Positions 9,576 to 55,770 of a stretch of DNA of 64,000 bases are shown piece by piece. The stretch is taken from positions 310,001 through 374,000 of the forward strand of contig NIVC01000738.1 in NCBI GenBank assembly GCA_002269645.1, read 5' to 3'. The translations under genes were made by a program, and so were the position numbers. Origin of the DNA: Macrostomum lignano. Taxonomy: Eukaryota. Position 1 is the stretch's first letter; each line of letters starts with the position of its first letter. The notes under the pieces were generated by a model. The model saw only the letters and a program-made list of their open reading frames with translations. It was not told where the DNA came from and made no database searches.

Positions 9576-11743
9576 TTATTCGCTGCCACCCGCCATGGCC
9601 AGCAGCGAAGGCAGAGTGTCGGGATCCAGGTTGCCTCCGGTGAGGACAACTCCAATGTGGCGCAGATGATCGGGCAGGCAGTCCGCTGCGGCGAACACTG
9701 CGGCGTGCAGAGCCGCGGCGCTGGCTGGCTCGATGACCTGACGGCACGGAGCGTTTGGGGCGACAGTCAGGGAGATTTTTTAGCCTTTCTTCATCCCCTC
9801 TCCTACAGGTGACTTGCGCTGCCCTTCTGTCCTGCTCTACCTTAAACAGACTCCTGACGCACCTGCTTCAGGTAGCGGAAGGCCAGGCGACAGCCCAGCG
9901 CCATTTCGGCGTCCGAGACAGACAGCACGTCGGGCTGGACGAGGTCGCAAAGCACCGGGAAGGTGAGCTCCCCCGCCGACTGCAGCCGCAGGCCATCTGC
10001 GATGGTCGTCAAGAAGGCGTCGGGGTTTGGCCATAGAGGTTGGCGGGCCGCCAGGCATTTGGCGAGGCCTTTACCGGCTGGCTCCACGCAGTGAACGCGG
10101 AGCTCCGGCTTCAGGTGGCGGCAGGCCACCGCGATGCCGCTGCTGAGGCCGCCGCCGCTGATGGGCACCTGCAGGTCAGGAAGGTCGGTGGCGGTATGTA
10201 GCCATTAGGCGCACTCAAAATATTTTGTTTATGGTTTACATCCTCTGAGAATGTTCCGGTCCGATAATTTGGCCTTGGACACTTTGTTCTGTTTCGGTTT
10301 CATGCTCAAAATCTGAAGTTTCCAACGTTTCCTGCGAGCTAGACATTGAATTTCGACGATAATAGTAGAAAAACAAAAAACATGCTTGTGTGCACCGATG
10401 GTTGTACATGCGGTAGCTATTAAACGTTTAAAGAAAATTTATGTAACTTTATGAGAATTGTATGTAAATTTTTGAGTCGCATATGCTGCGTATGTAAGTT
10501 GTACTCGTATGATATCTTAAATTCGTACGAATTGTTTCATTTCTCCAGAACAGTTCCCAGTTAAGATGAAACTACAATACACGAGTTCGTTACACGTAGG
10601 TACACGAAAATACGCCACAAAACTTGACTCATGCTAGGCATCTTGCTAGACTTTCGGTTGTACGAGTAGCATGAGGGCTTGGAGACAAAGTGATTCGGGT
10701 TGCTTGCACAAACGCGAAACTTCACACCCGCTAAATGTAACTTTAGTTGGTGATTTAGCTATTACGAAGTTTCGCTGTTGCAAAAGTAGATAACATTTAG
10801 AGGTTATGAAATTTCGCGTTTATGAAATCCCCCGCGGATGAGAGGGGAAGTATCTGGCCAGTTTGATGTGGCCACGAACACGGATTGCAACCCGGGCTAT
10901 CATGGAGCAAGAGTCAGAAGCGTCAATTGCTGAGCTGCGCTGGCTCGAGCACGAGAATTCGCCTGGCAACTCTCGCCTGAAAACCATGAGAAAATCGGGG
11001 CCGCCGTTGCTTTGATTTGTGGGAGTGCCTGAAGCCCCACTGCAGGTACAAGCTAACAAACAGAGCACCAGGGTCTTACCAAGACAGCGTCCAGCTCGGG
11101 CACCTGCTCCAGCAGCTCCAGGGCCACGGTGCCCTGCCCAGCCATCACGCGGTAGTCGTCAAACGGCGGCACCACAACAAGGCCGCGCTCCTCGGCCAGC
11201 CGAGCGCAAGCCTGGCGCCGGGCGCGCATATTCGGCTCGCAGAGGACCATCTCTGCTCCGTAGGCTCGGATGGCTGCCGTCTTGGCTGGCGAGGTGCCCT
11301 CGGGCACCACCACGCAGCAGGTGAGGCCGCATTCTCGGGCTGCCCAGGCCAGGGCTTAGTTAGGGATAAAGTTGAAATTTGTACGAGGAAAAACTTCCGC
11401 TTTGTAAAAGCCATTGGCAAATGAGCCGCACCTGCCCGTGGTTGCCGCTGCTGTGCGTCGCCACTCCAGCAGGCGTGGCGCGGCCGTTCTCCCGCGCCTC
11501 TTCCAGCAGGCACAGGACGGCGTTCAGCGCTCCGCGCGCCTTGAAGCTGCCAGTCCGCTGCAGGTGTTCGCACTTGAAATACAGCTGGCGCGATGACATG
11601 GCGTCCAGAATTCTGCTGGTCATCACCGGCGTGCGGTGCAGCCGGTCGCGCAGACGCTGCGCTGCAGAGGCGATTTTATCGAATGATATTTGCTTAGAAT
11701 GGTGGGGCGCTGCGGCCGCGGCTGTTGGAGTCGAGACCGACAT
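9576..11743 (-). CDS. SRR: Serine racemase / serine-threonine dehydratase (PLP fold II), 4 exons
   Basis: Exons 11743-11432, 11354-11080, 10168-9863 and 9737-9576. Motifs: FKCEHLQRTGSFKARGA (PLP lysine), HSSGNHGQ, PFDD..VMAGQGT, VPISGGGL, IADGL, GVVLTGGNLD. The exon 1/2 junction is one nt short as assembled. AATAAA overlaps the TAA stop. Confidence 0.9.
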
Positions 11744-12282
11744 CTTTGCATTGGTTTTATTGAATTCAGTTATTCAATCAATCCTGAGGTTCGTGAAAAC
11801 TGCTAAAAATTGGCTTTCGAAATCTCGTATGCTTTGTTGTGGCCCTCGCCATGCAGTATTCAACCCTAATCTCTCCCTTGCGAATGCTTATCTGACATTT
11901 TAGCAAGACACAGATGAACAGTTCCAAGCATTTACTTAGCGAATAGTCGAAGTGTACATATACAATCGTGCAGTCTATGCATGCACTGTACATGTGCATG
12001 CAATACCAGTGCACACTCCCTCTAACGAATAGGTTAAATACATGTCAGACAAGCTGTACGCTGTTTCCTCTGGCTACGTGACTGGCGCTTTTTTCTCTCA
12101 TTCTATTGTTCGGAAGACGATATTTTGACAGCTGTGACCTTTCACCCTTATAAGTATATTCGTTTTAATCCTAGTCACCTCATAGATAATCCCATCTCAC
12201 TCTCCTCTTCATCAAAAATCTAATGTACGAGTATATTTTCAGGTTAATTTTGAACCTGGCATCGCTGAAACTCATAAATCAT

Positions 12283-12800
12283 AGTAGTAGGAAAGTGGTA
12301 CCCTCTACCGCCATCGCACCGGATTGGCCGGGGCACCCGGCCAATGAGGGGAGAGGGCGCCCCGAAGACGCCCACCCCGACGCCAAACCCACCCCGACCC
12401 CCAAACCCACCCCGACCCCAAACCCACCACCGCCACGCACCCAATCCCGACCCCAAACCCACGCACCCACCCCCGACCCCAAACCAGGCCCCCTCCTGTC
12501 CTACACCCCTCCTGTCCTGCACCCCGTGCATCCCATACCAAGACCCCCTCCTGTCCTGCACCCCGTGCATCCCATACCAAGACCCCCTCCTGTCCTGCAC
12601 CCCGTGCATCCCATACCAAGACCCCCTCCTGTCCTGCACCCCGTGCATCCCATACCAAGACCCCCTCCTGTCCTGCACCCCATGCATCCCATACCAAGAC
12701 CCCCTCCTGTCCTACACCCCTCCTGTCCTGCACCCCGTGCATCCCATACCAAGACCCCCTCCTGTCCTGCACCCCATGCATCCCATACCAAGGCCCCCTC
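12283..12800 (+). repeat. Left terminal inverted repeat, including an expanded 39-bp tandem array at ~12490-12790
   Basis: agtagtaggaaagtggtaccctctaccgccatcgcaccggattggcc... matches the reverse complement of the region ending at 23319. The 39-bp unit is ccccctcctgtcctgcaccccgtgcatcccataccaaga. Confidence 0.92.
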
Positions 12801-13362
12801 CTATCCTACGCCTTGCCCCATCCCATGTAGCAAGGTCCTTCTATCCTGTACCCTAACCAAAACCAATTCCCCCCTCCTAATTCCTAAACCCAAGTCTTAT
12901 TACCTGTCTCACTTACCGCCTTTAAAGCTAGCCAAGGCAAAACCCTCATTCCATGCTTTGGTTGTACTGTATCTTGCTGTGGCGGGTACAGCGTGAGGTC
13001 GTTAGACCTAGAACGCTACTTCTTGGCGGCCAGAGGGCCGCAAGAAGGTCCCGCCACCTCCTGTTACGTTGATGGCTGAGACTTTGTTAAGGCCCGAGTT
13101 CCTGCGAAAGGGCTGCTGTGTGGGGGTTGGATTTGGGGTTCGGATTAGTTATTGCTATGGAACAGGAGCTGGTTTCTAAATGGCTGAGTGGTCCCCGGAA
13201 GGGCTCCTGATTTGCCGAGAGTTCCTGCGAGAGGGCTGTTGTGTGGGGTTGGATTCGGGGTTCGGATTGGTTATTGCTATGGAGCGGGAGCTGGTGTTAC
13301 TTACCAACTCTCGTCGTATATAATCTCGCACACAGCCGGAAGGAAAGCTCACAGTGAACAAA

Positions 13363-13800
13363 ATGAACTTCAAGACATTATCGAACAGATTTCGAATCGG
13401 CGTCAGGTCGCACTCGAAGTGCATCAGCATCAGAAAGTGGTACAAATTTGATGAAGAGTATCGACCAGGTCTGCCTGGCATGGAGCTCACCGTCCACCAG
13501 TTTTGCCACTTGGGCAGCCTGAAGGAACGACTGGAAGAGTTTGCAAGAAAGTGTATCGATGCGCAATGCCTTCTGGGTGGCAACAGGCAAGTGGTTGTGC
13601 AAAATGGCGTAATCACACTCTGGCGCCTTCCAACTGTACTCGGACCGCCGGTGCACCTAAGGCACGCCTTACCGCTTCCTACTACACTTTGGCGCGAAGT
13701 CTGGGCTCAAAAGCAATGGGTCCTAGACAAAATGACAAGCGAGAGCCTCCGGTCGAGCCACCGATCGGCGATCCATGGGATACCACCCTACGGAATCTGA
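13363..13800 (+). CDS. PC4/Sub1-like ssDNA-binding / coactivator-domain protein (Polinton-encoded)
   Basis: RIGVRSHSKCISIRKWYKFDEEYRPGLPGMELTVHQFCHL matches the PC4 pattern (V.V..F.G...IDIR.YY....PG.KGISL..EQW..L). A second, weaker repeat begins LGGNRQVVV. TATATAA lies at 13317-13323. Confidence 0.7.
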   Translation: MNFKTLSNRFRIGVRSHSKCISIRKWYKFDEEYRPGLPGMELTVHQFCHLGSLKERLEEFARKCIDAQCLLGGNRQVVVQNGVITLWRLPTVLGPPVHLRHALPLPTTLWREVWAQKQWVLDKMTSESLRSSHRSAIHGIPPYGI

Positions 13801-14048
13801 AGTGTTCAGCATGGGCAGCAAGGCTTACGCTCGACCAACTGATGCAAGTACCTGACAGGCAGTCGGCAGATTGGGACGACCACTGGGGGGCCTTCCAAGC
13901 AGTTCAGGCTGAATTTAGAAAGAGATTTACATTCGAAACTCTGGAAGAGCCACCAACAGCTGAGAAGAACCAACAGCCTTCATTCCACCAGCCACCAATG
14001 AAGCGACGCGCAATGCATGAAGCGACAACTGGTCATTTCGTCAATTAA
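13716..14048 (+). CDS. Hypothetical ~110-aa Polinton protein
   Basis: ATG-initiated ORF (MGPRQNDK...) overlapping the PC4-like ORF, with an AATAAA near 14212. No recognisable motif. Confidence 0.4.
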   Translation: MGPRQNDKREPPVEPPIGDPWDTTLRNLKCSAWAARLTLDQLMQVPDRQSADWDDHWGAFQAVQAEFRKRFTFETLEEPPTAEKNQQPSFHQPPMKRRAMHEATTGHFVN

Positions 14049-14483
14049 CTTTTTTTTAATATAGTTTTGAACCATAGTACTGATCATGCACTGTTGTATA
14101 TATTGCTTTGTCAATACTGGCCATAATATTGCCCCATCATGCTTTGATTCCGGGCGATAATACTGTTTTGTAAATACAGGCGACGGGCCTTAATACTGCC
14201 CTTCCATTCTTAATAAACTTTTTTGTGCTAATACGAGCTTTTAACATGTAATTTTATGCTTTGCAATCCATGGACCTGCCAATAAAATAAACAAAAAAAA
14301 CATTTCATTTTCGTAAGCATTGTTGTACAAACACTATTGTCGCATTCGCGTTTATTTTTTCTTATCTTTTGTACACAAAAAAAATACAGAAGTAAAGTTA
14401 CAGCAAAAATATTATTATTATTATTATTATTATTACTCGGTGCATAGGCAGATCTCACTACTACTGTTATGCCGTAGAGGAGC

Positions 14484-15083
14484 TCAGTCAGAGTCCAGCA
14501 AAGTAGGTTCGGATGCTTGATCTGGTAGCAAAATGCGGGAGAGGGCATCAGCTGCAGTCTGAGCCTCAACCACGCTGCGAGCACCAGCTATTATACAACG
14601 ATACGAATGAAACAAAATCAACTTTACAGAGGCAGTAAACTCGAGCACAAGTCCGTTAAACATTTCCGGCTCATAGGTGGCCCGATGCGGCCATTTAGAC
14701 TTGACTTCCCCCAACCGGAGTGGATGCCGACCCGCGGGAAAGGCCGTCACAGAGGTAATAGTCTTGATGCGAATCTGGGGCAGACTGGTCAATCGCAAGA
14801 AGTCCGCACACAGCTTCACAATCTTCTCCGTCTCTGCGAGAGCTTCCTCCATGCTTTTGGCTCCACAGACAGACACTTGTCCGGTCGGATACACCAGCGC
14901 GGTTACTCGATGCTGCCCGCTCTTCATCACCACTGCCAGTGTTCGAGGATGAACCAGGCGATGGCGGATTGTGTGATACTGAGGCAGATGAAGAGTCAGG
15001 AAATTCACTAGTTGAGGCAGACCCACCCGGGTCGCCAGGTCGGCTCCTGTCACGATGTTTGTCACGCGAATTGTTGCGACCAT
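14484..15083 (-). CDS. TATA-binding protein (TBP)-like protein, 199 aa, intact, inside the Polinton
   Basis: Two TBP repeats: RVTNIVTGADL...TALVYPTGQVSVCGAKSMEEA and IRIKTITS...ATYEPEMFNGLV...KLILFHSYRCIIAGARSVVEA. Compare canonical QNIV...TALIFASGKMVVTGAKS and YEPELFPGL...LIFVSGKIVLTGAK. Confidence 0.88.
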   Translation of the reverse strand: MVATIRVTNIVTGADLATRVGLPQLVNFLTLHLPQYHTIRHRLVHPRTLAVVMKSGQHRVTALVYPTGQVSVCGAKSMEEALAETEKIVKLCADFLRLTSLPQIRIKTITSVTAFPAGRHPLRLGEVKSKWPHRATYEPEMFNGLVLEFTASVKLILFHSYRCIIAGARSVVEAQTAADALSRILLPDQASEPTLLDSD

Positions 15084-15576
15084 CTTTAGACAATCGAGAG
15101 AAACGCCAGTGCCTGCTGCAGATCGCTACTTTTATAGACCCGTAGCCGCGAGGCCGCAGCCAATCAGCGTACAGCGCCACTTTGGCCAGGGCGCAGGGTA
15201 GCACGTACTTTGAGGCACTCGGAAAGGCTAGGTGTGCGAGGTCGTAGACAGGCTGCAGCAGCAGACGCGACAGGAACTGGCACTTGACATCCCCCTTGCT
15301 AAATATCGGGCCTTGCAAGTGAGAGATATCGCTCCAGAGACAAGAGTAGGGTCGGAACCCACTCCTGTCCCAGTCTAGACCGTGCCGCTTATTGGTGAGC
15401 CAGTAGCAGGTTCGTCGCTGTCCTCTATCAAAGAGCTCAAAGCTGTGCGGCGGCTGGTAGCAATAGTAATGAGCCGTCGTTTGACCGCATGCAAACTCAA
15501 CCCATGCAATTTCCTTAATCACAAAGTCCTCTGTTTTGTAGAGGTGCGGAAATCCTTCAAAATCAATGACAATCAT
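14695..15576 (-). CDS. DnaQ/DEDD-like nuclease-fold protein of Polintons; the real protein is probably the N-terminal ~140-150 aa
   Basis: MIVIDFEGF...FVIKEIA...H...PP...WLTNKRHGLDWD...FSKG..KC.FL. The C-terminal ~130 codons overlap the TBP-like gene out of frame and look like read-through. Confidence 0.6.
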   Translation of the reverse strand: MIVIDFEGFPHLYKTEDFVIKEIAWVEFACGQTTAHYYCYQPPHSFELFDRGQRRTCYWLTNKRHGLDWDRSGFRPYSCLWSDISHLQGPIFSKGDVKCQFLSRLLLQPVYDLAHLAFPSASKYVLPCALAKVALYADWLRPRGYGSIKVAICSRHWRFSRLSKDGRNNSRDKHRDRSRPGDPGGSASTSEFPDSSSASVSHNPPSPGSSSNTGSGDEERAASSNRAGVSDRTSVCLWSQKHGGSSRRDGEDCEAVCGLLAIDQSAPDSHQDYYLCDGLSRGSASTPVGGSQV

Positions 15577-16487
15577 CTTGGCCACTTGATCCACTTGCCG
15601 TATCCTTTCTGAGACTGAGTCTTCTTATAGCCTTGCAGTCGAGGTTTTTTAGGACTGGACTTTTCTTCCCGAGGCTTTTCCAGCAATTTTGTAGTGTTCA
15701 GACCAACTGCAGACAGAGGCACGTGGTTTTCTTGAAGACACGTAACAAACTCATTAATCCCATTCGGTGGCTGAAGGTACTTAGAGTACGTATCTTTAAC
15801 TATGAAATGCAGCAGGTCCACGATATTTGAGTTGTACAACGGTTTACCATTGACAGAAACTTCATACGTATCATCTATGCTAATCGACTTGCACTTTACG
15901 GTTATGAAGCTAATCAATGCCTGCAGACGATGATGCCATTTCTGATTCACCGTCAGATATAAAACCTCCTTCCACTGCGGTTCTTTGTGAATTACTGGAG
16001 GCTGTTCTTGGGTCGCACTTGCCTGCAGCTGCTGCACGCAACGCTCGTCCCTAATCTTGCGCAACTGTTTTTCCGCCTCTAGCTCGGGTTCACAGACTGT
16101 CTCCATGCCCCTCTGATTCACAAGTGCCTCATACTGCAACCGGGTACCAGTATCATTTCCTTGTACATGTCTTTTTATACAGGTGAGAATCAGAGGAAGA
16201 CAACGAAGGATATGCGGGTGTGAGAGATTACGCCGAGCCTCTTTCACACTTTTGCTTTGTGCAACAAGCCGGAGAGTATTTCGATATCGCCTGAGTCTCC
16301 GCTTCAAGCTATCTTCACAGCCAACTTTTCCTGCTAGTAAGTTGATAATACACTCGACCAAAAAGCAAATGGTGCTTTTATTTGCATAGGTAAGTATGCA
16401 GCGACGCAAGGATATAGTGCCCTCACAAAAGACAGTTATTAGTGCAATGTGTTTATCATGTTTAACTCAGTGCAGAGACTGAGCCAT
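15573..16487 (-). pseudogene. Two conserved Polinton ORFs, apparently fused by a 1-nt lesion, with an in-frame TGA
   Basis: ORF A reads MAQSLH*VKH...FLVECIINLLAGKVG...KRRLRRYRNTLRLVA, with TGA at 16469-16467. ORF B starts MYKEMILVP in another frame near 16150 and continues ...NGKPLYNSNIVDLLHF...PPNGINEFVTCLQENHVPLSAVG...KWIKW. Confidence 0.6.
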
Positions 16488-16489
16488 TC

Positions 16490-17147
16490 TTATAGATAAA
16501 CTCGCTGCGGGGCCTCATCGGGGAGAAAATTGGCTCTCAGGCGCAGTTCATGGCGTGAAGCGGGTGAAAATCAAGCAGCAGATAGCGCTGATCTCCATCT
16601 CGCACCAATCGATCCATCAGTTCTACTAGCAGAGTGCGCCGTTTGGGAAAGCATTGCTGACTTAAAGCTTGGACCGCAGAGGCGTCTCTGGGGTTGTTGA
16701 ACAACACCATGTAGGTGCAATTTATGCTAATTGTGCGCCACTCTCTGCCTTTGAAAAATAGATTTTGCGTGATGAGAATGACAAAGCAGGGCTTGTGGTG
16801 GGCCTCACGGGTGAACAGATGTCGTAGCTCTCGACTTGCAGCTGCTTCATCCAGTAAATCGTCAATCACAATCAGGTCATGGGGCTGCAGATCCAAATTC
16901 GATAATCCTTCACATACTTGCACTCCTAGCCGCCGCAGAGTCGCGTGGAGTTCCGGCTGCGGGCATCCGTGATACCAAATCATCCGCTTGGGAGGTTGGT
17001 CGAACAAAGCAGTCGTTGGGACAGCAACCGCAAACAGAATGTTGATTTTCCCGCTCGAGAAGGGCCCGAAACCATCATGCAGCCTCCCATCCGCAGTCTG
17101 GAATCAAACACCTTGCAACTGATTTTTGAGTCTGAGTATGATTGCAT
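16490..17147 (-). pseudogene. A32/FtsK-HerA-like DNA-packaging ATPase, frameshifted as assembled
   Basis: Walker A GPSRAGKST, then a frameshift near 17010, Walker B LIVIDDL, HH and TQN motifs and LFNNPRD. A second shift near 16550 precedes ELRLRANFLP. Confidence 0.9.
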
Positions 17148-17577
17148 CGTTTTGAGCCACAGCTGCCGGGTGCAAAACCTTGATGAACAAGGCATTATAT
17201 GACATTCTCTTATGCAGTCGATGGATCAAGTAAAAAATGCAATACCAGCCGCAAAGAGTTGACGAACTGGGCTGAACAGGGACCGTATTCCATTGTAGCA
17301 CCATCCGCGTCGGTTTAGTTTTCTTTAACCAGCTCTTCATATTTTTACTCAAGCCTCCCAAAGAGTTGAAAATTTCACAATGCACTTTACTGGTTACTAC
17401 TCCAGCAATCCAGTGACCGCACTCATCATTCCATGGCTCATACAAAATGAAGCAGCAGGGTCGGCAGGTTGAATCGAAAAATGGTGTCACTGTTCCAACT
17501 GTAAAATTTCCGCAATAGGCATCCCGCACAGATGTGGGGCAGCGAGAAATGAACGCTTCCAACTCTTCGGAATTCAT
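17104..17577 (-). CDS. Adenain-like (clan CE) cysteine protease, 157 aa
   Basis: GHW (His), FNSLG (normally FDSxG), VQ (oxyanion Gln) and CGWYC (Cys). Confidence 0.88.
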   Translation of the reverse strand: MNSEELEAFISRCPTSVRDAYCGNFTVGTVTPFFDSTCRPCCFILYEPWNDECGHWIAGVVTSKVHCEIFNSLGGLSKNMKSWLKKTKPTRMVLQWNTVPVQPSSSTLCGWYCIFYLIHRLHKRMSYNALFIKVLHPAAVAQNDAIILRLKNQLQGV

Positions 17578-18844
17578 GCTCTGCGATAATCCAGCAGCAC
17601 ATCCCTCTCTTTAGTGATTTCCATGCATGAATCATACACGCACAAGCAGATGAGTGTGACTGGCTGTGCGAGAGCGTTGGAAAAGCGAATATCCAGTCGT
17701 AGTTGACCCTGCCTATGACCAAACCAGCTGCCTACTTCATCGCCACTTGGACTAAGGTCAAACGCAAGCAGATAGGCACTATTTCGAAATTCATCAAAGC
17801 TTATGCAATATTTTCCACTGAGACTGCGGGCAAACTGCAAAAATTCGGATGAGGGCTGCTGCTGTGGTTCTATGGGCTGCCCAGTAATTGGCTCTCCATT
17901 GACAAACAGGCTTAAACTATTCAACCAAATGCTTGGAACCAAAACGGGTTGTGGTGCAGAGATCCATTGAAAGCAGTCTGGCTGACCATTCCAAGGAGCA
18001 CAAATTTTGGCAGCTGACCATGCGTGATTGAATCGAGACTCTTGTTTCTTGTCCCAACAGAAAATGTGAATGTCTGAAGCTCTCTTCTATCAAAGTGGTA
18101 GAGAGCATTACGCTGTGAGAGCCCCTGTTCATGTGCGAGAGCCACTGTTGGGTTTACTCGGAGACGCCTCAAAAGCAGAATAGCATTGTCGACTTCAACA
18201 CGGTATTGAACTCCATTATTGGGTACCATCAACGAAAAAGCGCTGCAGTGCCGGGTCAATTTGACCTGCAGGCTGATTTGGTTTAGCAGATACTGCCGGA
18301 TTGAGAAAATGTCTGAAAACAACGGGCCGGCATATTGCACAACAGCAGAAGCCTCATGCAATCTCGCACGATTTGTGAATCCATGATTTTGCTCCCCAAT
18401 GGTGTCACTCTCTCCAGCGGTGTCTGGATAATAACCTGCGGCCGCCAGTTCTTGAAGCTGGTTGGCATTGCTGCTGGTCAGCACTTGAAGCATTGCTCGA
18501 TATGGGTAGAGCTGGTCCCCACCACTCACAACCCGCTGGTTGAGTTTTACAGTGACATCACGAAACAGGCTGGCAAGCGGGAGATTCGATAGTCCGACAT
18601 GGGCATCATCTTCATTAGTCAGCTCTGCATTGTTTATCACACGAGTTATCCGGCAAGTGACTTGCAGCACTGTGGCGTGCAGATCGGTGTAGTCCTCAGA
18701 GGAGGCGTGGCAGTCGAATTCAATCGGTGCATCAGGAGTCGTGAGACTGCCGATGGGATGAAAGTCCGTGAAGTGAGACCTATCCACTCCAATTTCATGC
18801 GTCATTGGCTCAAACAGATTGAGCCGTGGATTTGTCCGATACAT
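17574..18844 (-). CDS. Polinton major capsid protein (double jelly-roll, PY/hexon-like), one frameshift near 17925
   Basis: LNLF...PIEF....DYTDLHATVLQV...SLFRDVTVKLN...YPYRAML...NPFWFQAFG, then in the adjacent frame LNSLSLFVNG...AFDLSP...G.LRLDIRFSNAL...VTLI....YDS.MEITKERDVLLDY. Confidence 0.88.
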
Positions 18845-19107
18845 TATGAGAGTGAATCGAGCACTCGGTTGACTGTTTTTAACGGTATCTTGCGCTTTTT
18901 TGTGGGCACTGGCTTGCTCTTCTTTGGTTTGATTTTTGGCGTTTTCTTATGTTTTTTCTGCGATGGAGGTGGTATGCGGGAAAGGAGAACTGCATTTTCA
19001 TGAGTCTCAGGGGGCAGTCGAGATAGCAGCGATGTGGGATATCCGTGCCCATGAGGAAGTTTGAAGCAACTGCCTCGATAAAACTCGGTCACTTGTCGAA
19101 TGTCCAT
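18844..19107 (-). CDS. Small basic virion-core-like protein, 87 aa
   Basis: FYRG...HGHG N-terminus and a Lys/Pro-rich tail. It lies between the minor and major capsid genes, and its stop overlaps the MCP ATG (TAATG). Confidence 0.6.
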   Translation of the reverse strand: MDIRQVTEFYRGSCFKLPHGHGYPTSLLSRLPPETHENAVLLSRIPPPSQKKHKKTPKIKPKKSKPVPTKKRKIPLKTVNRVLDSLS

Positions 19108-19871
19108 GACTCACGCAGCTCAAAAGTCAAGACTGTGGGTCCAAAGAGTAATCGGATAGATTCGATACAGTTGATCGGTCGTAGCCGTATTTGCATGTGT
19201 GTTAAGCGGTGGTTTGCTGCTATTGGGAAGAATAGCTTATTCTTATAGATGAGTTCCGACCGGTGATCCTGCAAAAGACCACCAATATTCAAAGTCTGCA
19301 GTGCTGGAGTAAACTGATTTCCAATACAGCGCGGGCTAATCTGATCGCACTCAACAAGCAGCAAATCCGTATTCCAGGCCGGGTTCATGCCAGGTCGTTC
19401 AAAGCATCCTGCCTGCTCGCTATAGGTTGTCTGCGCAGCACCAAAGATTTTCCCCATCTGGCTGTTTTCTGGAAACATAAATCTCTCACAGATCCCAGCC
19501 ATTTGATAGTATACATAATGGCTAACTGAATCAAGGGTAAATTTAATTAGATGCACATTTATAGGTGTTTCGCCAATTCCAGACTCATCAAAATCTTTTA
19601 CAATCAGTAAAGCATTTACTGCATCAATCAGCTCATTCAAGTCATTGTAGCGCCCAGCTGGAATTTCAGCACATTGCATTGAACCCTCAAGCTGATAATA
19701 TAGCGACAATGGATGAGGGATCGTGTAGATGCAGTTGATAAAACTGATTCCAAGCAGACCCAACTCATAGTCCAAAGCAGAATCCAGCAGCACAGGATGC
19801 AGCAGCTCAGCAGTAAAGTTGGCCGGGTCATCATCGGGGCCGGACATTACCTGAAATCTTTGCCTTTTCAT
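19089..19871 (-). CDS. Polinton minor capsid protein (penton/PX-like), 260 aa
   Basis: N-terminal ..NFTAEL..PVLLD...YELGL.GISF pattern and C-terminal FFPI...LTHMQIRL...T.LTFELR. Its position after the integrase fits this call. Confidence 0.75.
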   Translation of the reverse strand: MKRQRFQVMSGPDDDPANFTAELLHPVLLDSALDYELGLLGISFINCIYTIPHPLSLYYQLEGSMQCAEIPAGRYNDLNELIDAVNALLIVKDFDESGIGETPINVHLIKFTLDSVSHYVYYQMAGICERFMFPENSQMGKIFGAAQTTYSEQAGCFERPGMNPAWNTDLLLVECDQISPRCIGNQFTPALQTLNIGGLLQDHRSELIYKNKLFFPIAANHRLTHMQIRLRPINCIESIRLLFGPTVLTFELRESWTFDK

Positions 19872-21086
19872 ATTTTTCTTAAGTCTTTTTCGTCAATCCA
19901 ACTGGGTTTTTCTGAATCGCGCCACTGAACCAAATACCGAATCTTTCCACTCTTCAGCTTCTTAATGTTGAGAACCTTGTCGATGATCCACAGCTTCTTG
20001 TTTCCTGTCACTTGCTGCATTTCCGGCTCGTAAAACTTGCCTTCCAACTCTTCACCTCGGGCATCGATCAGAGTGTACATGTATGGATAATGCTTGGGGT
20101 GGAGGGACTTGACTTCAAATACTTCCTCACTCCATCCCCTTGTGTATCCCTTGGTGAATGGGTTGGCCAGATTGCGAAGAGAGATTCGCACCATCATTCC
20201 TGCCTTGAACTTTGGTCTGGAGACCTTTTCACGAGTCTCAGGAAGCTTCCCATCGTAAAGCCGGTGCCAAATTTCCATCTCGTTTGACTTGTCGACATCA
20301 ACTGGTCGGCTTTGAATACTCCGATGAATACTCTGGTTGTATGCCTTTGCTAAGGGTTGAAGCACATCGGTCCAGGTTAATGTTGACTTGTGACGGAAGT
20401 ACCGCCACATTCGGGATTTCAGTGTGCGGTTCCATCTCTCAATGACTGCGCATTTCTGGTCACTACTTGATGTGAATGCATGAATTTTGTGGTTTACGCA
20501 GAAGGCTCGGAACTGGGTGTTACAAAACTCTTTTCCACGGTCGGTCCGAACTGCTCGTGGGCATCGAGGGTGAGCTCGATTTAGGATCGCTTCGAATCCG
20601 GCTGCAACCTCCTCGGCTGTCTTGCGGCGCACCGGCTGAGCCCAGGCAAACTTGCTGAGCACATCAATGCAGCATAAAATATATCGTACGCCGCCATTGT
20701 ACTTGGCAAACGGTAGCATTTCAACCAGGTCCAGTTCCCACTGGTCATCCATGCCCCGCACCACAATCGGTGCTCGACGAAAGTTTTTGCGTTTATCTCT
20801 ATGCAGTGTGTAGACATCTTGGTCTTGGAGCCACGTTTTTACCTTTAATTGTAAAAACTGGAAATTGCTAGCTAGTGGATAAAACTAAAAACCTAAGCTG
20901 GAATTTTCTAAAAAATCATTGGTTTAGAAGTATATCGTATATACATACCTGCCCTACACTAAACTTGGGTCCGTGCTGTTTGTGCAACTCTCGTTTTAAT
21001 GCCTGATAGCCGCCATAGCTGCCCGGTCTACTGCAGTCAAAATAAATACCTGGCAGAAGGTTTGAAATTGCCTTTTTCTTTTTCAT
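19868..21086 (-). CDS. Retroviral-like (rve) DDE integrase with C-terminal chromodomain-like region, 2 exons, 370 aa
   Basis: Exon 1 is 21086-20949 (MKKKK...YFDCSRPGSYGG...Q), the intron is 20948-20843 (GTATGT...TTAAAG), and exon 2 is 20842-19868. Exon 2 motifs: VKTWLQDQDVYTLH, WELDLVEM, IDVLSKFAW, RTDRGKEF, IERWNRTLK, YNQSIHRSI, YLVQW. Confidence 0.93.
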
Positions 21087-21197
21087 TTTACCAAATTTCT
21101 AGTACCTATCATTTTCTTATGCCAAACACCTGCTTGAAAAAAAAAATAACTGCCCACCCCCACCAGTTTCTGCGGATTTAGCGTTTCTAGCCTCTGT

Positions 21198-21510
21198 TGT
21201 GCACGAAAAAGCATGCATGTTTGCACAAAATACATACATTTCAATGGGAATTTTTACCCGAATGTGTGCACAAAAAACCTCAACACTTTGCATACTTTTT
21301 AACACTGTGCACGAAAACTTGCATACTTGTGCACAAAATACATGTATTTCAATAGGGATTTGTACCCGAACCTGTGCATGAAAATTGACGCATTTTGTCG
21401 AAAAATTCACGCCGTATTGCATACTTTTAATCACTGGACGAAAACTTGCATACTTGTGGATAAAATACATACATTTCAATGGGGATTTTACCCCAGAGCT
21501 GTGCACAAAA
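21198..21510. repeat. Three degenerate ~108-129 bp direct repeats upstream of the integrase
   Basis: Copies start at 21198, 21306 and 21435 and share tg(t)gcacgaaaa...aaaatacat..atttcaat.gg.attt.tacc. Confidence 0.7.
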
Positions 21511-21702
21511 AATGACTAATTATAGCAAAAATATTTTTGTGAAAGAGCATTTTTCTCTATTTCTGCGTATTAAATATCATAGAGTAAAGCTTGTATTTAT
21601 TATTATTCAAAATATAGTATGTTCGTATTAAATTTACATGCATATAGTTGTTTTAAATCAGATATTTACAAAGAAAAAAAAATTTGTGGGAAAAAGAGCT
21701 TG

Positions 21703-22472
21703 CTAGTGTCCTGACAGATCGCACTGGCCGATATACACTAGCCTGTCGAGCACAACATTCGTCTTGAGAATGTGCACTAGAGCTAAATCCCCGTTGAAAA
21801 TCATCTGATCGCGGAACGTCGGCTTGGCCACAGGCTTCCCTGCTGAATAAACCAGCACGTAGTCCACTTGCTTGCGAACATACTCGATGGTCTACAGGGA
21901 GTTGTTTAGCAGCTTGTTGCAGTCTTTCTTGAACTCATTCTTGGCCTTTTGCACGACGCTCTATGCGGTAGATAATAACTTACGGTTGACACGTCAACAC
22001 ACCGAGTGGTCCTGATTACCCAGCCACTGCCATTGCGTAGTTACTTCTCTATCCGGTTGATGATAGTCTGCATGTCGTCAGAGAAGTAGTACTCCTCCTC
22101 ACTCTGGAGAAGAGAGTGGACCTTGGCAGCAAACCAGGCAGTGTTCTCGGCGGCGCAGCTACCATTAATGATGCGCTGCATCAGGACCCCGAGGCGCAGC
22201 TGAACTTTGATGGCGGTTCCTGGCTCACGTTGATGCTGGGTGATCAAGTCAATGAAAGCTTGACGAGTGTTTTCCAAAACATTCATCGGGTCGCCGCATG
22301 CACTGGCCCGGTAAAGTTGGGACCTGCCATTAAACGCCTCCTTGATCAGTTGAAAATGAATCGCTGGGGAGTCATCTGACTCAAACAGTGCTGGTATCGC
22401 AGGACATACCGCATAGTGCTCCTCAATGCCCCCGATTACTGATGACTCGCAAAAGTCGCAAGTTATTTGCAT
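21703..22472 (-). pseudogene. Protein-primed DNA polymerase B remnant (internally deleted, with nonsense codons)
   Basis: The N-terminal region (CDFC...H...C; KVQLRL...IEK*LRNGSGW) is joined within about 100 nt to motif B (KDCNKLLNNSL*TIEYVRKQVD...AKPTF...IF...KTNVVLDRLVYIGQCDLS). Exonuclease, motif A and motif C are absent. Confidence 0.85.
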
Positions 22473-22532
22473 TTTCGTTGTATTTTTAATTTAATCTAAA
22501 ATAAATAAAAAATCTATGGGGCCGAGGTGCTT

Positions 22533-22700
22533 TATTTATAAAGGGTACTGGAGCCCTTCTCCCGCAGGGTCCAAACCAAATCGTTCATCAGGGACCTCTC
22601 GACCAATAGAATCCATTCTCCACATTTTACTCGGAAATCACTTCAAATGCTTGCTCGACCAATAGAATCCCTTCCCCTCTCTACTCGGAAATTCCAAGCA
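22533..22700 (-). promoter_or_regulatory. Putative PolB promoter: TATAAATA plus duplicated CCAAT-containing 56-bp repeat
   Basis: TATAAATA lies at 22540-22533, about 60 nt before the ATG at 22472. ctcgaccaatagaatcc...tactcggaaat occurs at 22598 and 22654. Confidence 0.45.
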
Positions 22701-22953
22701 ATCAGACCCTCTACCCGTTAAGATCACATTGAAACTCTGTCTTGCGTATCACCACATGCGGTAGAGGATACTCAACTATGGACACTCATTCACATCTCAA
22801 AACTCACCCTTGAACACTCACTTAACTCACCCTTGGACACTCACCCAGACACTCAGCTGCCCAACCCCTCATCTGGCCTGCTCGACCGGCTTGCCCGACC
22901 GGCTTGCCCGACCCCAACCTGGGCTTGCCCGACCCCCTTCTCCGGCCTCCGGT

Positions 22954-23319
22954 ATGGGATGGTGTGCTGGACAGGAAGGGGCCTTGGTATGGGATGGGGT
23001 GCAGGACAGGAGGGGGCCCGGTTTGGGGTCGGAGGTAGGTGCGGCGGTGGTGGGTTTGGGGTCGGGTGGGCGTCTTTGGGGGCCCGGTTTGGGGTCGGGG
23101 TGGGTGCGTGGCGGTGGTGGGTTTGGCCGGGGTCGGGGTGGGTTTGGGGGTCGGGATTGGGTGCGTGGCGGTGGTGGGTTTGGGTCGGGGTGGGTTTGGG
23201 GGTCGGGGTGGGTTTGGCGTCGGGGTGGGCGTTTTTTGGGGGCGCCGTCTCTCCTCATTGGCCGGGTGCCCCGGCCAATCCGGTGCGATGGCGGTAGAGG
23301 GTACCACTTTCCTACTACT
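22954..23319 (-). repeat. Right terminal inverted repeat
   Basis: Reverse complement of the left end, differing in the copy number of internal subrepeats. Confidence 0.92.
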
Positions 23320-23906
23320 AATCATATTTTATCAAAATGGGATGATTTATGGCCACACCTGTCACTTTTCGAGGGTTCTCCGGGGCTTTCAGGTTCAGGT
23401 AGCATCAGTCGATCAGCGAATCAGAAAAATCAGTTGGTGTAATCAGAATTGAAGTATTTCAAAAATCGCCGGGCCAGTTGGTTCCCAATTTGGACCGCTG
23501 ATTTTTCCTGCCTGGAACCAAACCTTTCACTCCGTTCGGCGGGGATCTCTGCTTTCCCCGCGACGCATTTCAGTTCGTTGAGCAACCCTGAGGGACCGTC
23601 TGAGTGAACATCCTCTCCAACTGCCGACTTTCTTTCCCCCGGTTTCAGCGCCGCCCCTCATCGAGCGAAATCGAGTCAGAAGACGCCATCTTCGATGTCA
23701 ACTGCCACAGCTTCATCGAGAGTCGGCCGTCCCTGAGCTACGACTCGGGTGAGAGGCTAATTGAACCTGCTTGGTTGAGAGGACTGTTTATATCTGGCCC
23801 CGTTTCAATAGTTTGATTGGGTGTTGCACTTTACTTGTTTGCTTTTCACGTGCTGAACTTTTCGAGGCAGAAATCCAGCGTTAAATGCTAAGAGCCTAAT
23901 AAAGCA

Positions 23907-24124: not shown

Positions 24125-24874
24125 TATAGTATTTTGCAGCCCATTTGGGCTTATGCGCATTTAATTTAATCCAAGATACGTTTGCCAATGTAACAGAGCT
24201 TTTGTCTATGGTAGCAAGGCTGGCGCAGCGGCATTTAATTTGGTCCAAAAAGCATCCATTTGGTCCAAACACTCGTGAGCCATTGGACAAACTCTTGCCT
24301 TCTCTCAACCGTCTGCAGGTTGTTGCGCACCGCTAGAATGTCAGCGTCTCTACCAGCAGTTTTCAGTTGCTTTTCCAGAGCTCTGCTGATAGTCGAAATC
24401 TGATAACCAACTGGAGCTGTTCCCTCAATTTCTGCTGCATTTCGGCAACGTCAACAAAGGGTTCGTCTCCACTGCATCGAGTAGCAGTTGGACCTGAGGC
24501 TCTCGAGCAACTTTCCTTGGCGATTGCCACCCTTTCGCACGCAATCTCTGCCGGCAGAGTTTCAACGCGCTGCTGGATGCTGTAAACCACCTTTTCTTTT
24601 ACATTCAGCAACCTTGCAATGTCCTTTGGGTGTTCACCTCCGTCGAGTGCTTCGATCACAAGCCAATGACATTCGTTCAATAGCCTAGCATATGGTCCAC
24701 AATTCTGGGACTGAGCTGCAAATGAACTAAATGGACCAAATTGATGCTTGTCGGACCAAATCAAATGCCGCTGCGCCAGCCTTGCTACCATAGACAAAAG
24801 CTCCGTTACTTTGACAAACAAATCTTGGATTAAATTCGATGTGCGTAAGCCCAAATGGGCTGAAAAAAGCTATA
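24125..24874 (-). mobile_element. Tc1/mariner-type deletion derivative with ~140-bp TIRs
   Basis: Inverted repeats at ~24125-24266 and ~24727-24874. The interior encodes an HTH-like transposase N-terminus (GEHPKDIARLLNVKEKVVYSIQQR...DEPF...EMQQKL). Confidence 0.7.
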
Positions 24875-49925: not shown

Positions 49926-51364
49926 CTCTAGAGTGATGAACCGCGTGCTTTCCGGTGAGGTGGCGCCAAACGAATGGACCACGGCGCACATCGTCGCCAT
50001 TCCAAAGAAGCCGGGCACCACCAAGCTCGAGGAGCATCGAGGCATCTGCCTACAGTCCTGCGCCGCGAAGCTGTTCAACCGCATGCTGCTATCGCGGCTA
50101 CAGCCTGTGCTGGACCCGTACCTGCGGCCTGAGCAGAACGGATTCCGGCCCCATCGCGGCACAGTGACGCAGATCCTGGCTCTTCGGCGAGTCATCGAGG
50201 AGGCGCGCATCCGCCAGTTGACCCTGATCCTGATCTTCGTCGATTTCAGGAAGGCCTTCGACTCGGTCGTGAGGGACGCGCTCCCAGAGGTGCTCCGTGC
50301 GTACAACGTGCCAGAGCTGCTGATTTCTGCTGTCATGGCGCTGTACATGTACCACGGCACGACGGCTGCTGTCTCAACACCGGACGGCCTATCGGATTTC
50401 TTCGAGACATCCTCCGGGGTGCTCCAGGGAGATACGCTAGCGCCGTTCCTATTTATTCTGGTGCTTGACTGGGTGCTACGGACTGCTCTGCCTTCCAACG
50501 ACGACGGCTTCCTGCTGCGGCGACGCGTGGGTCGACGCCAACCGGAGAGACGGCTCAGCGTGCTTGGCTACGCCGATGACCTCGCCCTGCTGTCCTCGAC
50601 CGTCGAGGGCGCCCAAAGACAGCTGGATAGGCTGGTTGCCGTTGCGGCGAGCGTCGGCCTGGTGGTCAACACGCAGAAGACCGTCGTGCTCTGCGTGCCG
50701 GACGACACCGAGGCTGCAATCTTCTGCCGAGGCGCTGACGGACAGGCGAGTGAGCTTCCAAGATGTCAGCAGTTCGTCTACCTCGGCGGTCTGGTTCCCG
50801 ACGTCCGCGAGGATCTGCGGCGTCGCCGAGGACTTGCCTGGGCTGCCTTTCGTTCTATAAGGTCAGTCCTGCAGTCCGAGGCCCTACCGGACCGCCAGAG
50901 GGCGGCGCTGTTCCAGGCGGTGATCGAGACCGTCCTGTTATACAACGCCGAGACCTGGACGCTGACAGACTCGCTCGAGGCTCAAGTCGACGCGGCGCAC
51001 GTTGGCCTGCTGCGCGCCGCCTTCAAGATCGGCAACGAGCGAGTCACCAACACGGCGCTCTATCATCGCGCCGGCCTGGCCCGTCCTAGCGATCTGCTGC
51101 GCCGTCGGCGACTCCAGCTGGCAGGCCACGTTATCCGCGCCGAGGCCTACTGTCCGGAGCCGGTGCAGGAGGTGCTGCTACTTACGTTGCAGGCACCCTA
51201 CCGGCGGGGACAGGCGAGGACTCGGCGCTACGTCGACTGTCTGCTGGCTGACGCCGGCGCCCCGGACTCTGCCGGCGGTGCGGCCTTTGTTCGCGTCCAA
51301 GCTTCGAAGCGCGCCATCTGACGCTGCTTTTGCGAACTGACAGCGTACTCTGTTGTTGTTGTTG
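49926..51364 (+). mobile_element. 5'-truncated RTE-clade LINE with an open reverse transcriptase ORF (49933-51321)
   Basis: QNGFRPHRGT, FVDFRKAFDSV, GVLQGDTLAPFLF, YADD and RRLQLAGHVIR. (TTG)n tail. 10-bp TSD TATGTGTCTT at 49916-49925 and 51365-51374. Confidence 0.93.
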
Positions 51365-54471: not shown

Positions 54472-55770
54472 GAACTACCAAGAGAGAGGGGAATATCCCC
54501 CCCTCCCCCAGAAAATGTTTTTGCTGCGCCGGAACGGAGCAACGCAGGCACACGAAATTCAAGAACACGGGCTGACTTTTTGTTGCGCACCTTCTCAAAC
54601 AAGGATCAAGTCGCCAGCCCTCCGGACCGTCGAGATATTTGACGATTCTGCCAGAAGGTCGGATTTTTCCCATAAGCGTCAGTGTATTCAGTACACCCCT
54701 GTGCGCCAATCAGCACTGCGCCTCAGTGCAGCCTTGCCAAGTCTCCAAATTTCATCAGCACGTCGAACACATGTGTCTGCATCAGCTCTGACTTCGTTGG
54801 TCACTGGCCTTCACCCAAGTGGAGCTTCTGGACCCTCAACAGGTGGCACCAGGTGACTATGGACACCCTGAGGCGGATTTCTCTAGTTTCGCCGATCAAG
54901 CCTCGACAGTGGGCAAGAATCAACCGCCGGACATCCTCAGCTAGTCAGTCAAGCATTCAGCCATCACCCCGACGCCGTCGGCACCTTCAACAGGTGGCAC
55001 CAGGAGAGTAAGGACACCTGAGCGTGATTTTTCATCATGCTCTTAACATTTCTGAAGCTCTCAAATTTTTAAGCACGGACATTGCTATAGTTAAGCTTGA
55101 ACTCATGTTGCTGTATATTTATATTATTATTACACATACTTTTATGCATACGAGCTACATACATATTTTATTCGACAAGCTGTTTAGTTTATTCAACTAT
55201 AATATTGAACCAAATTTTTAAGCAGAAAGGGTTATGCTTTAAAAAATGAAAAACCGATTGAATTTACTGGCTTCTTAAAAGCCGACGGCGTTGGGATGAT
55301 GACGGAATGCTTGAGAGACTAGCTGAGGATGTCCGGCGGTTGATTCTTGCCCACTGTCGAGGCTTGATCGGCGAAACTAGAGAAATCCGCCTCAGGGTGT
55401 CCATAGTCACCTGGTGCCACAGCTGTTGAGGGTCCAGAAGCTCCACTTGGGTGAAGGCCAGTGACCAACGAAGTCAGAGCTGATGCAGACACATGTGTTC
55501 GACGTGCTGATGAAATTTGGAGACTTGGCAAGGCTGCACTGAGGCGCAGTGCTGATTGGCGCACAGGGGTGTACTGAATACACTGACGCTTATGGGAAAA
55601 ATCCGACCTTCTGGCAGAATCGTCAAATATCTCGACGGTCCGGAGGGCTGGCGACTTGATCCTTGTTTGAGAAGGTGCGCAACAAAAAGTTAGCCTGTGT
55701 TCTTGAATTTCGTGTGCCTGCGTTGCTCCGTTCCGGCGCAGCAAAAAATCCCCCCCTCTCTTGGTAGTTC
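54472..55770. mobile_element. Fold-back-like element with ~500-bp inverted arms
   Basis: 54472-~54980 is the reverse complement of ~55281-55770, with an AT-rich spacer. No TSD was found. Confidence 0.75.

Follow-up and report, generated by a model that had tools for sequence, protein, structure and literature searches.

A TATA-binding protein-like gene and a candidate promoter box shared by two Polinton families of Macrostomum lignano

How animal Polintons express their virion genes, and whether they are still viruses, are questions for which a Polinton that encodes a TATA-binding protein (TBP) and carries a matching promoter box gives a direct test. The locus considered here lies in a 64,000-nucleotide stretch of M. 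lignano DNA (contig NIVC01000738.1, positions 310,001 to 374,000), referred to as the window. The original prediction was that an intact TBP-like gene inside a Polinton of this window might encode an element-specific promoter factor with altered specificity or a decoy that binds TFIIB. New here is the observation that a box, YWTAAGAR, stands upstream of the same seven genes in both Polinton families, designated A (the family of the window) and B, and is absent from two PolB frames.

The element and its genes

Polintons, or Mavericks, have terminal repeats with AG-type starts and are flanked by a 6-bp target-site duplication. The window element has both. It spans 12283-23319 (11,037 bp), starts with AGTAGT and ends with ACTACT, and its terminal 90 nt are complementary at 83 of 90 positions. 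Its boundaries are as follows.

12277-12282: left target-site duplication, AATCAT, 6 bp
12283-12825, plus strand: left terminal inverted repeat, imperfect, with internal tandem repeats, AGTAGT first
22959-23319, minus strand: right terminal inverted repeat
23320-23325: right target-site duplication, AATCAT, 6 bp

Four contig sets presumed to be RNA cover the element; they include host junctions, may therefore represent DNA, and give no information on expression or start sites. On the minus strand the gene order is PolB remnant, integrase, putative minor capsid protein, small basic ORF, major capsid protein, protease, ATPase, small ORF, ORF177, an ORF designated exo, and TBP; at the opposite end lies a PC4-like gene that points towards TBP.

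13317, plus strand: TATATAA box, 46 nt upstream of the PC4-like gene
13363-13800, plus strand: PC4-like gene (ssDNA-binding/coactivator fold), convergent with TBP; Pfam PC4 E 2.6e-5, slightly under the cut-off
14484-15083, minus strand: TBP-like gene, 199 aa, intact, with two TBP repeats, ATG to TGA without an internal stop
14695-15576, minus strand: exo ORF, 293 aa, its first 149 aa conserved between families A and B
15573-16106, minus strand: ORF177, with a canonical TATAAAAA at 16179; 33% identity to family B ORF233
35 nt after the box at 16487-16494, minus strand: broken small ORF, equated with family B ORF112/116 from its position and by visual comparison
16537-17147, minus strand: packaging ATPase with a Walker A motif; frame interrupted near 17000 and near the 3' end
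17104-17577, minus strand: adenain-like cysteine protease; Peptidase_C48 E 0.0085, under the cut-off
17590-18844, minus strand: major capsid protein, its frame broken by a stop at about 17921; 41% identity to family B
18844-19107, minus strand: small basic ORF, core-protein-like to judge from its composition
19089-19871, minus strand: putative minor capsid protein; 24% identity to family B
19868-21086, minus strand: rve integrase with a chromo-like tail; Pfam rve E 6.4e-14; 5' part interrupted
22041-22472, minus strand: N-terminal pPolB remnant, 143 aa, with a canonical TATAAATA at 22540

The packaging ATPase and the cysteine protease were recognized from the Walker A motif and from weak, sub-threshold Pfam matches. 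Their family B counterparts match Pox_A32 weakly (ATPase, E 0.018, 43% identical to the window ATPase) and Peptidase_C5 under the cut-off (protease, E 0.0026). The major capsid protein has Atlas feature matches of 0.94-0.98 to DJR-like, Capsid_N, and Sputnik MCP clusters, the double jelly-roll class, and the family B orthologue of the PC4-like protein matches Pfam PC4 with an E of 6.6e-10. The ORF at 19089-19871, for which Pfam and the other protein libraries searched gave no match, is presumed from its position and pattern to encode the minor capsid protein, which in Polintons has a single jelly-roll. The exo ORF, which had no match in Pfam, PHROGs, or the PDB, may be exonuclease-like, a name suggested by its N-terminal motif. 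No TFIIB was found among the element proteins scanned.

The window copy is defective, with interrupted integrase, ATPase, and major capsid frames and with PolB reduced to its 143-aa N-terminal remnant. Long DNA_pol_B_2 frames are present in other copies of families A and B. The remnant is 47% identical to the beginning of long PolB frames at other places in the genome, one of which is a DNA_pol_B_2 match with an E of 5.6e-12. In 17 of 57 PolB rows the match covers the whole remnant at 87-100% and the frame is only 149-194 aa long, a pattern indicating that a PolB-deleted, nonautonomous subfamily that retained TBP has spread.

Several other features were noted in and around the element. The terminal arm and TATATAA box before PC4 in the window (12283-13355) are 96% identical to the arm and box before PolB in another family A copy (L041:788-1820), which indicates that terminal arms have been exchanged between element ends. 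Three repeats of about 97 nt, spaced 108-127 nt, occupy the interval between the integrase and the PolB remnant (21200-21531) and also occur in other family A copies. A separate small element at 24125-24874 has 143-nt inverted repeats flanking a 142-aa helix-turn-helix ORF, and a host exon for a pyridoxal-phosphate enzyme (PALP, E 2.7e-15) lies at 11360-11743, about 540 nt from the left end of the Polinton. Elsewhere in the window, a 461-aa ORF (49936-51321) resembles a LINE reverse transcriptase by eye, and a pair of 328-nt inverted repeats with 574 nt between the arms spans 54518-55747.

The TBP-like protein

The intact 199-aa ORF that had been predicted within the AATCAT-bounded element does encode a TBP: it matches Pfam PF00352 in two stretches, with an E of 5.6e-19 and 68 bits (cut-off, 22.9). 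All 35 PDB sequences that match it are TBP-containing chains. A fold comparison had been proposed as the check on this assignment, and its outcome agrees. The AlphaFold model has a pLDDT of 87 and, among the Foldseek PDB matches listed, the 39 with E<1e-9 are all TBP chains or TBP-containing complexes, with TMq values of 0.62-0.72 at 19-24% identity. These results confirm that window positions 14484-15083 (minus strand) encode a TBP-fold protein with a two-repeat saddle that belongs to PF00352.

Residues are numbered as in yeast TBP, anchored on the alignment with 1tbp and with an offset that we take to be 60. The intercalating phenylalanines F190 and F207 of the C-terminal repeat and the TFIIB stirrup glutamates E186 and E188 are retained in the window protein (F142, F158, E138, and E140), just as had been claimed. 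The reading of the N-terminal repeat held in part. Tyrosine stands at F116, as stated; the leucine proposed at F99 appears in the MAFFT register, whereas the phmmer register places threonine there, and neither register has phenylalanine. The replacement of the second asparagine was also correct, with threonine at N159. Thus, the window protein lacks the full set of four intercalating phenylalanines (F99, F116, F190, and F207) of canonical TBP, and its DNA face keeps N69 but carries N159T, P191N, and V203K.

These features extend beyond the window copy. All 10 element TBPs that were compared retain N69, V71, T112, L114, E186, P187, E188, F190, and F207, and all 10 have Y116, C124, K158, T159, K203, and H208 in common. 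None has P191, which is replaced by Asn or Ser. R196 is lost in all ten and R98 in most. The F99 intercalator position is Leu in the window TBP and Trp-Pro in family B, and in family A TBP the basic patch on helix H2 is partly lost. The proteins are basic (pI 9.5-11.1).

Age and origin of the TBP gene

A genome search for TBP relatives, in which 150 of 202 candidates were scored, yielded at least 46 rows for family A, fragments included, 17 of which span residues 1-192 or more without a stop, and at least 104 rows for family B, at 35-40% identity. Whether homologs lie inside Polintons had been proposed as a check, and among the loci fetched from this genome element genes adjoin TBP at 30 of 30 family A and 6 of 6 family B loci; a search of viral and metagenome contigs for related loci found none. 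In family B, exo is within 1 kb upstream of TBP in 101 of 104 rows, the misses being one contig end and two others, and the gene order from integrase to TBP is identical in the two families. TBP identity between families A and B (37%) resembles that of the major capsid protein (41%), ATPase (43%), exo (36%), and PolB (45%), and TBP was therefore already present in their common ancestor.

Substitution patterns differ between parts of the gene. Across 10 family B pairs, dN is 0.01-0.16 versus a dS of 0.06-0.76 in the N half (dN/dS, about 0.1-0.25), and pN is 0.22-0.40 versus a pS of 0.69-0.95 in the C half. For 26 close family A copies a dN/dS-type ratio is 0.47 overall, 0.18 in the nonoverlapped part, and 0.80 in the part overlapped by exo, which suggests that the exo-overlapped N half is under little constraint among close copies.

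The overlap arises because exo, past its first 149 aa, overprints the first 128 codons of TBP. In both families the exo frame stays open, in the same phase, over the first 106-128 TBP codons (window 14695-15083; L031-L035), where 3-4 stops would be expected; the probability of such an open frame under synonymous recoding is 0.002-0.03 per gene. The extension may be a real, overprinted, low-complexity tail. One locus carries a natural in-frame exo-TBP fusion of 359 aa that is missing the first part of TBP (L036:1422-2498), and frames of 358-363 aa occur at four places. Eighteen family B exo matches are 100% identical across 150 aa, which would reflect either recent expansion or assembly redundancy, as host TBP likewise appears three times. 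Family B TBPs can also be mosaic: in L031, L032, and L034, DNA identity stands at 90-100% upstream of the N-terminal repeat and across it, drops to 61-73% over the C-terminal repeat, and is under 50% farther on towards PolB, with the switch at TBP codons 100-120. Recombination thus seems to cross inside family B TBP and to leave the frame open.

The host genome has a canonical TBP (L037) and a TRF2-like gene (L038), each matched three times. In two trees, made by quick searches of 66 and 37 rows chosen from the search matches, the element TBPs and the metagenome relatives included with them form one clade on a long branch (SH-aLRT, 99). A clade of element TBPs with host TBP was rejected (AU p 0.003). 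The proposed phylogenetic comparison did not reject a grouping with TRF2 (AU p 0.22); the element TBPs are apart from TRF2 in both trees and have a residue pattern unlike that of TRF2.

One explanation for the gene is that it is a passenger, a captured host TBP or a TRF2 retrocopy that is decaying and is copied along with the element. The TRF2 result would allow this, many family A copies are broken, and the close metagenome relatives P0001 and P0002 are 26-27% identical to host TBP. However, synteny in two families, purifying selection, chimeric frames that have stayed open, and the rejection of the host TBP clade already largely refute a passenger origin, and we regard it as very improbable. 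The earlier conclusion that the gene is not a recent host capture is thereby upheld by the tree test and by synteny and selection in two families. Its lack of introns, which had been offered as an argument, is of no help here: the host TBP core, too, is a single open frame, and the absence of introns cannot separate capture from noncapture. Together these comparisons indicate that the TBP gene is an old accessory gene of a Polinton (Maverick/adintovirus) lineage rather than a retrocopy.

Six metagenome relatives of the element TBP were found (P0001, P0002, P0152, P0014, P0003, and P0008), all except P0003 known to sit on contigs of 0.9-2 kb. A further set of short, divergent TBP-like proteins (P0020, P0052, P0059, P0068, P0071, P0088, P0091, P0103, P0105, P0120, and P0011), several of which have H208 and K203 like the element TBPs and two of which are on 25-26 kb contigs, possibly come from other Polintons.

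A box upstream of the same seven genes

The sites in the window element, together with the TATA box of the TBP gene, are as follows.

15129-15136, minus strand: canonical TATA box TATAAAAG, 53 nt before the TBP start, within the upstream ORF
15622-15629, minus strand: box TATAAGAA, 53 nt before exo
16487-16494, minus strand: box TATAAGAA, 35 nt before the broken ORF112/116-like ORF
17207-17214, minus strand: box CATAAGAG, 67 nt upstream of the ATPase
18944-18951, minus strand: box CATAAGAA, 107 nt upstream of the major capsid gene
19240-19247, minus strand: box TATAAGAA, 140 nt upstream of the small basic (core-like) ORF
19876-19883, minus strand: box CTTAAGAA, 12 nt before the first ATG of the minor capsid gene and 36 nt before the second
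21114-21121, minus strand: box CATAAGAA, 35 nt upstream of the integrase

YWTAAGAR, a pattern set after the sites had been seen (first as CTTAAGAA in family B, then widened), occurs at these 7 coding-strand sites in the whole window element and at none on the other strand, compared with 0.93 expected and with 1 of 500 shuffles. The box precedes 7 of the 12 gene starts. The family B contig C878 has 8 coding-strand sites and 1 opposite match, the latter being the palindromic integrase site (1.4 expected; 0 of 500 shuffles), and there the box precedes 8 of 11 starts: those of the seven genes boxed in the window, and TBP itself (83 nt). CTTAAGAA is the commonest form in family B (6 of 8 sites). 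Five coding-strand CTTAAGAA sites are found in each of L035 and L034 (0.2 expected; 0 of 200 shuffles), with none on the other strand and none in 53 kb of host flank, and in C878 all 6 lie 30-115 nt before one of the 11 starts, within windows that make up 11% of the region and were chosen after the data were seen. Box sites recur in loci L031-L034 and L036.

The seven orthologous genes are boxed at like distances in families A and B: integrase, 35 and 47 nt; minor capsid, 36 and 35; core, 140 and 149; major capsid, 107 and 108; ATPase, 67 and 42; ORF112-like, 35 and 43; and exo, 53 and 51. The exo box TATAAGAA is unchanged in 26 of 26 family A loci in which the exo start was matched. No YWTAAGAR site was found in two PolB frames (7.2 kb), and the protease and ORF177/ORF233 have no box upstream in either family. 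The box is not unique to the element, since host flanks have 7 and 3 matches in 53 kb, both strands counted.

Some sites are intergenic, one type of placement spans a stop codon, and the codon phase varies from site to site, and therefore the box appears to be kept as DNA. Three sites (in the integrase, minor capsid, and ORF177/233) also keep similar residues, but conservation of protein does not explain all of the sites because codon phases differ and some sites are intergenic or cross a stop codon. Fourteen of the 15 sites in the two families are at least 35 nt from the first ATG, one window site being at 12 nt, which fits the expectation for a box 30 nt before a start site. No initiator consensus was visible downstream of the 15 boxes. 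In family A, canonical TATA boxes stand before PC4, the PolB remnant, ORF177, and TBP, and in family B one stands before PC4. TATAAAA precedes TBP in 21 of 21 family A loci with a matched TBP start, and at the same position, where exo ends, family A has TATAAAAG and family B has CTTAAGAA.

The box might instead be an RNA-processing signal, for 3'-end formation or as a trans-splicing cue between tightly packed genes, with an unrelated role for TBP. Its strict strand specificity, the location of many sites near the 3' end of the upstream gene, and the presence of only 4 AATAAA signals on the coding strand of the element would all suit such a signal. Yet in both families the integrase site lies between genes, with no gene ending close by, no box follows the last genes of the run, the PolB frames contain none, and the exchange of TATAAAAG for CTTAAGAA before TBP is not what such a signal would predict. 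We therefore consider RNA processing improbable.

It has also to be considered that the TAAG core is a late initiator of the baculovirus type, used by the RNA polymerase of a helper virus in the way that virophages use giant-virus promoters, in which case TBP would be early or host directed only. All 15 sites contain WTAAG, one lies 12 nt from an ATG, and the available text of PMC4893493 describes recognition of TAAG by the baculovirus polymerase. But the constraint reaches the YW before and the AR after the core, the other 14 sites lie 35 nt or more from the ATG, and no helper virus is known here. This possibility seems to us slight.

Proposed role of the element TBP

The residues that distinguish the element TBPs can be compared with the bases that distinguish the box. 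The C-terminal repeat of TBP contacts the TATA box's 5' half, P191 is believed to bar any base except T from position 1, the residues I194/V203/L205 face base pair 2, where I194F/V203T/L205V alter specificity, and G can be accommodated at position 6, as set out in the available text of PMC1636458. YWTAAGAR has C or T at base 1, T or A at base 2, and G at base 6. The box thus departs from TATAAAAG at the bases tied to P191 and V203 and at base 6, and the element TBP residues therefore fit the box. The loss of P191 and the gain of K203 match box bases 1-2, a correspondence from which binding is predicted.

We propose that the element TBP is probably an altered-specificity late-promoter factor that uses host TFIIB, by analogy with the herpesvirus TBP-like proteins (vTBPs) and their TATT box. 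Host TBP/TFIID would read the canonical TATA boxes of PolB, PC4, and family A TBP, and the element TBP would bind YWTAAGAR before the genes for the integrase, the two capsid proteins, the core protein, and the ATPase, and before ORF112 and exo. It would then use its intact EPE stirrup to bring in host TFIIB and polymerase II (Pol II), since the element supplies neither a TFIIB nor an RNA polymerase; the invariance of the TFIIB glutamates and the lack of a TFIIB among the element proteins scanned make host TFIIB the likely partner. Such an arrangement would amount to a minimal early-to-late switch under the control of a single small gene. The original suggestion of a promoter factor with altered specificity thus gains support, and a candidate target is now at hand.

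Some observations run counter to a late-promoter factor. TATAAGAA, at 3 of the 7 window sites, may be read by host TBP because G at base 6 is accommodated. The protease and ORF177/ORF233 are unboxed, and exo, which matched no known family, is boxed. The pattern was fitted after the fact, host flanks also contain matches, and one window site is only 12 nt from the first ATG. The F99 intercalator, R196, and in most proteins R98 are lost. Family B TBP is itself behind a box, so its first expression needs another route. Furthermore, a box and a viral TBP are no proof of discrimination, because EBV BcRF1 binds TATA and TATT alike in vitro according to the available text of PMC4893493.

These points bear on an alternative in which host TBP/TFIID reads the box as a weak TATA variant and the element TBP acts as a decoy or modulator, binding TFIIB or regulators of TBP and thereby dampening host transcription or shielding the element. 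TATAAGAA is near canonical, E186/E188 are invariant in proteins that have lost F99 and several phosphate contacts, and family A has lost part of the H2 basic patch. However, CTTAAGAA, at 6 of 8 family B sites, breaks bases 1, 2, and 6 together, and a decoy would need neither the same substituted DNA-facing residues in both families nor a pI of 9.5-11. The TFIIB decoy that had been suggested is compatible with the retained glutamates and is weakened by a DNA-facing surface that is altered but conserved and by the basic character of the proteins. We consider a decoy or modulator, in either form, unlikely.

Returning to the late-promoter factor, a broader proposal is that animal Polintons direct an early-to-late programme of their own by means of one minimal TBP, an orthogonal CTTAAGAA-type box, and host TFIIB, the box and TBP coevolving in each lineage. 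We offer this tentatively, as somewhat less than an even prospect. From the box one can predict start sites and a class of late genes, and from the residue changes the bases that the element TBP reads. If the late-factor proposal is true, the herpesvirus vTBP/TATT strategy would have an independent origin in an element of 11-17 kb, and the protein would be a natural altered-specificity TBP and a marker for cells with active Polintons. If animal Polintons do run their own programme, no smaller viral late-gene switch would be known, there would be direct evidence that these elements are autonomous nuclear viruses, and recombination inside TBP would exchange its two DNA-reading halves between the replication and the capsid modules.

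Comparison with known systems

The element resembles the Polintons, Mavericks, and adintoviruses described in the available text of Starrett 2021 (PMC8502044) in its terminal inverted repeats, 6-bp target-site duplication, rve integrase, ATPase, protease, and double jelly-roll capsid, and in a PolB of which the window copy keeps only the 143-aa remnant. The novelty of its TBP gene is less than had been assumed: the Fig. 5 legend of that paper, in the section on non-animal datasets, already names 'TBP' in polinton-like viruses with adintovirus-like PolB. TBP is not among the adintovirus genes in the available main text or in the text of Fig. S2, and the available text gives no Polinton promoter box or mechanism. 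The literature searched described no function for a Polinton TBP and no promoter box; a listing of the gene may yet be found in subscription papers, RepBase, or further parts of the Starrett supplement.

The element TBP shares with cellular TBP the two-repeat saddle fold, N69, F190, F207, the EPE stirrup, and a basic surface. Unlike cellular TBP, it has no N-terminal extension, has lost F99, carries F116Y, N159T, P191N/S, V203K, and T124C, and lies on a long separate branch. TRF2 differs from it in having lost F190 and F116 in other ways. Among nucleocytoplasmic large DNA virus (NCLDV) proteins in BFVD, the best fold match is the Heterosigma akashiwo virus TBP (E 8e-12, 17% identity), weaker than the matches to solved TBPs. 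Divergence at the TFIIB glutamates, together with a viral TFIIB, marks most viral TBPs, according to the available text of PMC7221094; in contrast, the element TBPs keep both glutamates, with no TFIIB among the element proteins scanned.

The TBP-like proteins of beta- and gammaherpesviruses, such as EBV BcRF1 and KSHV ORF24, read a TATT box on late promoters (available text of PMC4893493 and PMC12529657). Like the proposed element system, they combine a virus-type TBP-like protein and a variant TATA box before structural genes with host Pol II. As portrayed there, they differ in being large multidomain proteins within a six-member viral complex, whereas the element TBP is a minimal protein of 190-200 aa, with 199 aa in the window copy, consists of the core only, and has another box and no partner complex. 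The model of KSHV ORF24 in the available text of PMC12529657 is described as not compatible with the direct binding of TFIIB, and the element TBP keeps the TFIIB glutamates. With these differences, the herpesvirus vTBP is most likely what the element TBP works like, as an analogy and not as membership in that group.
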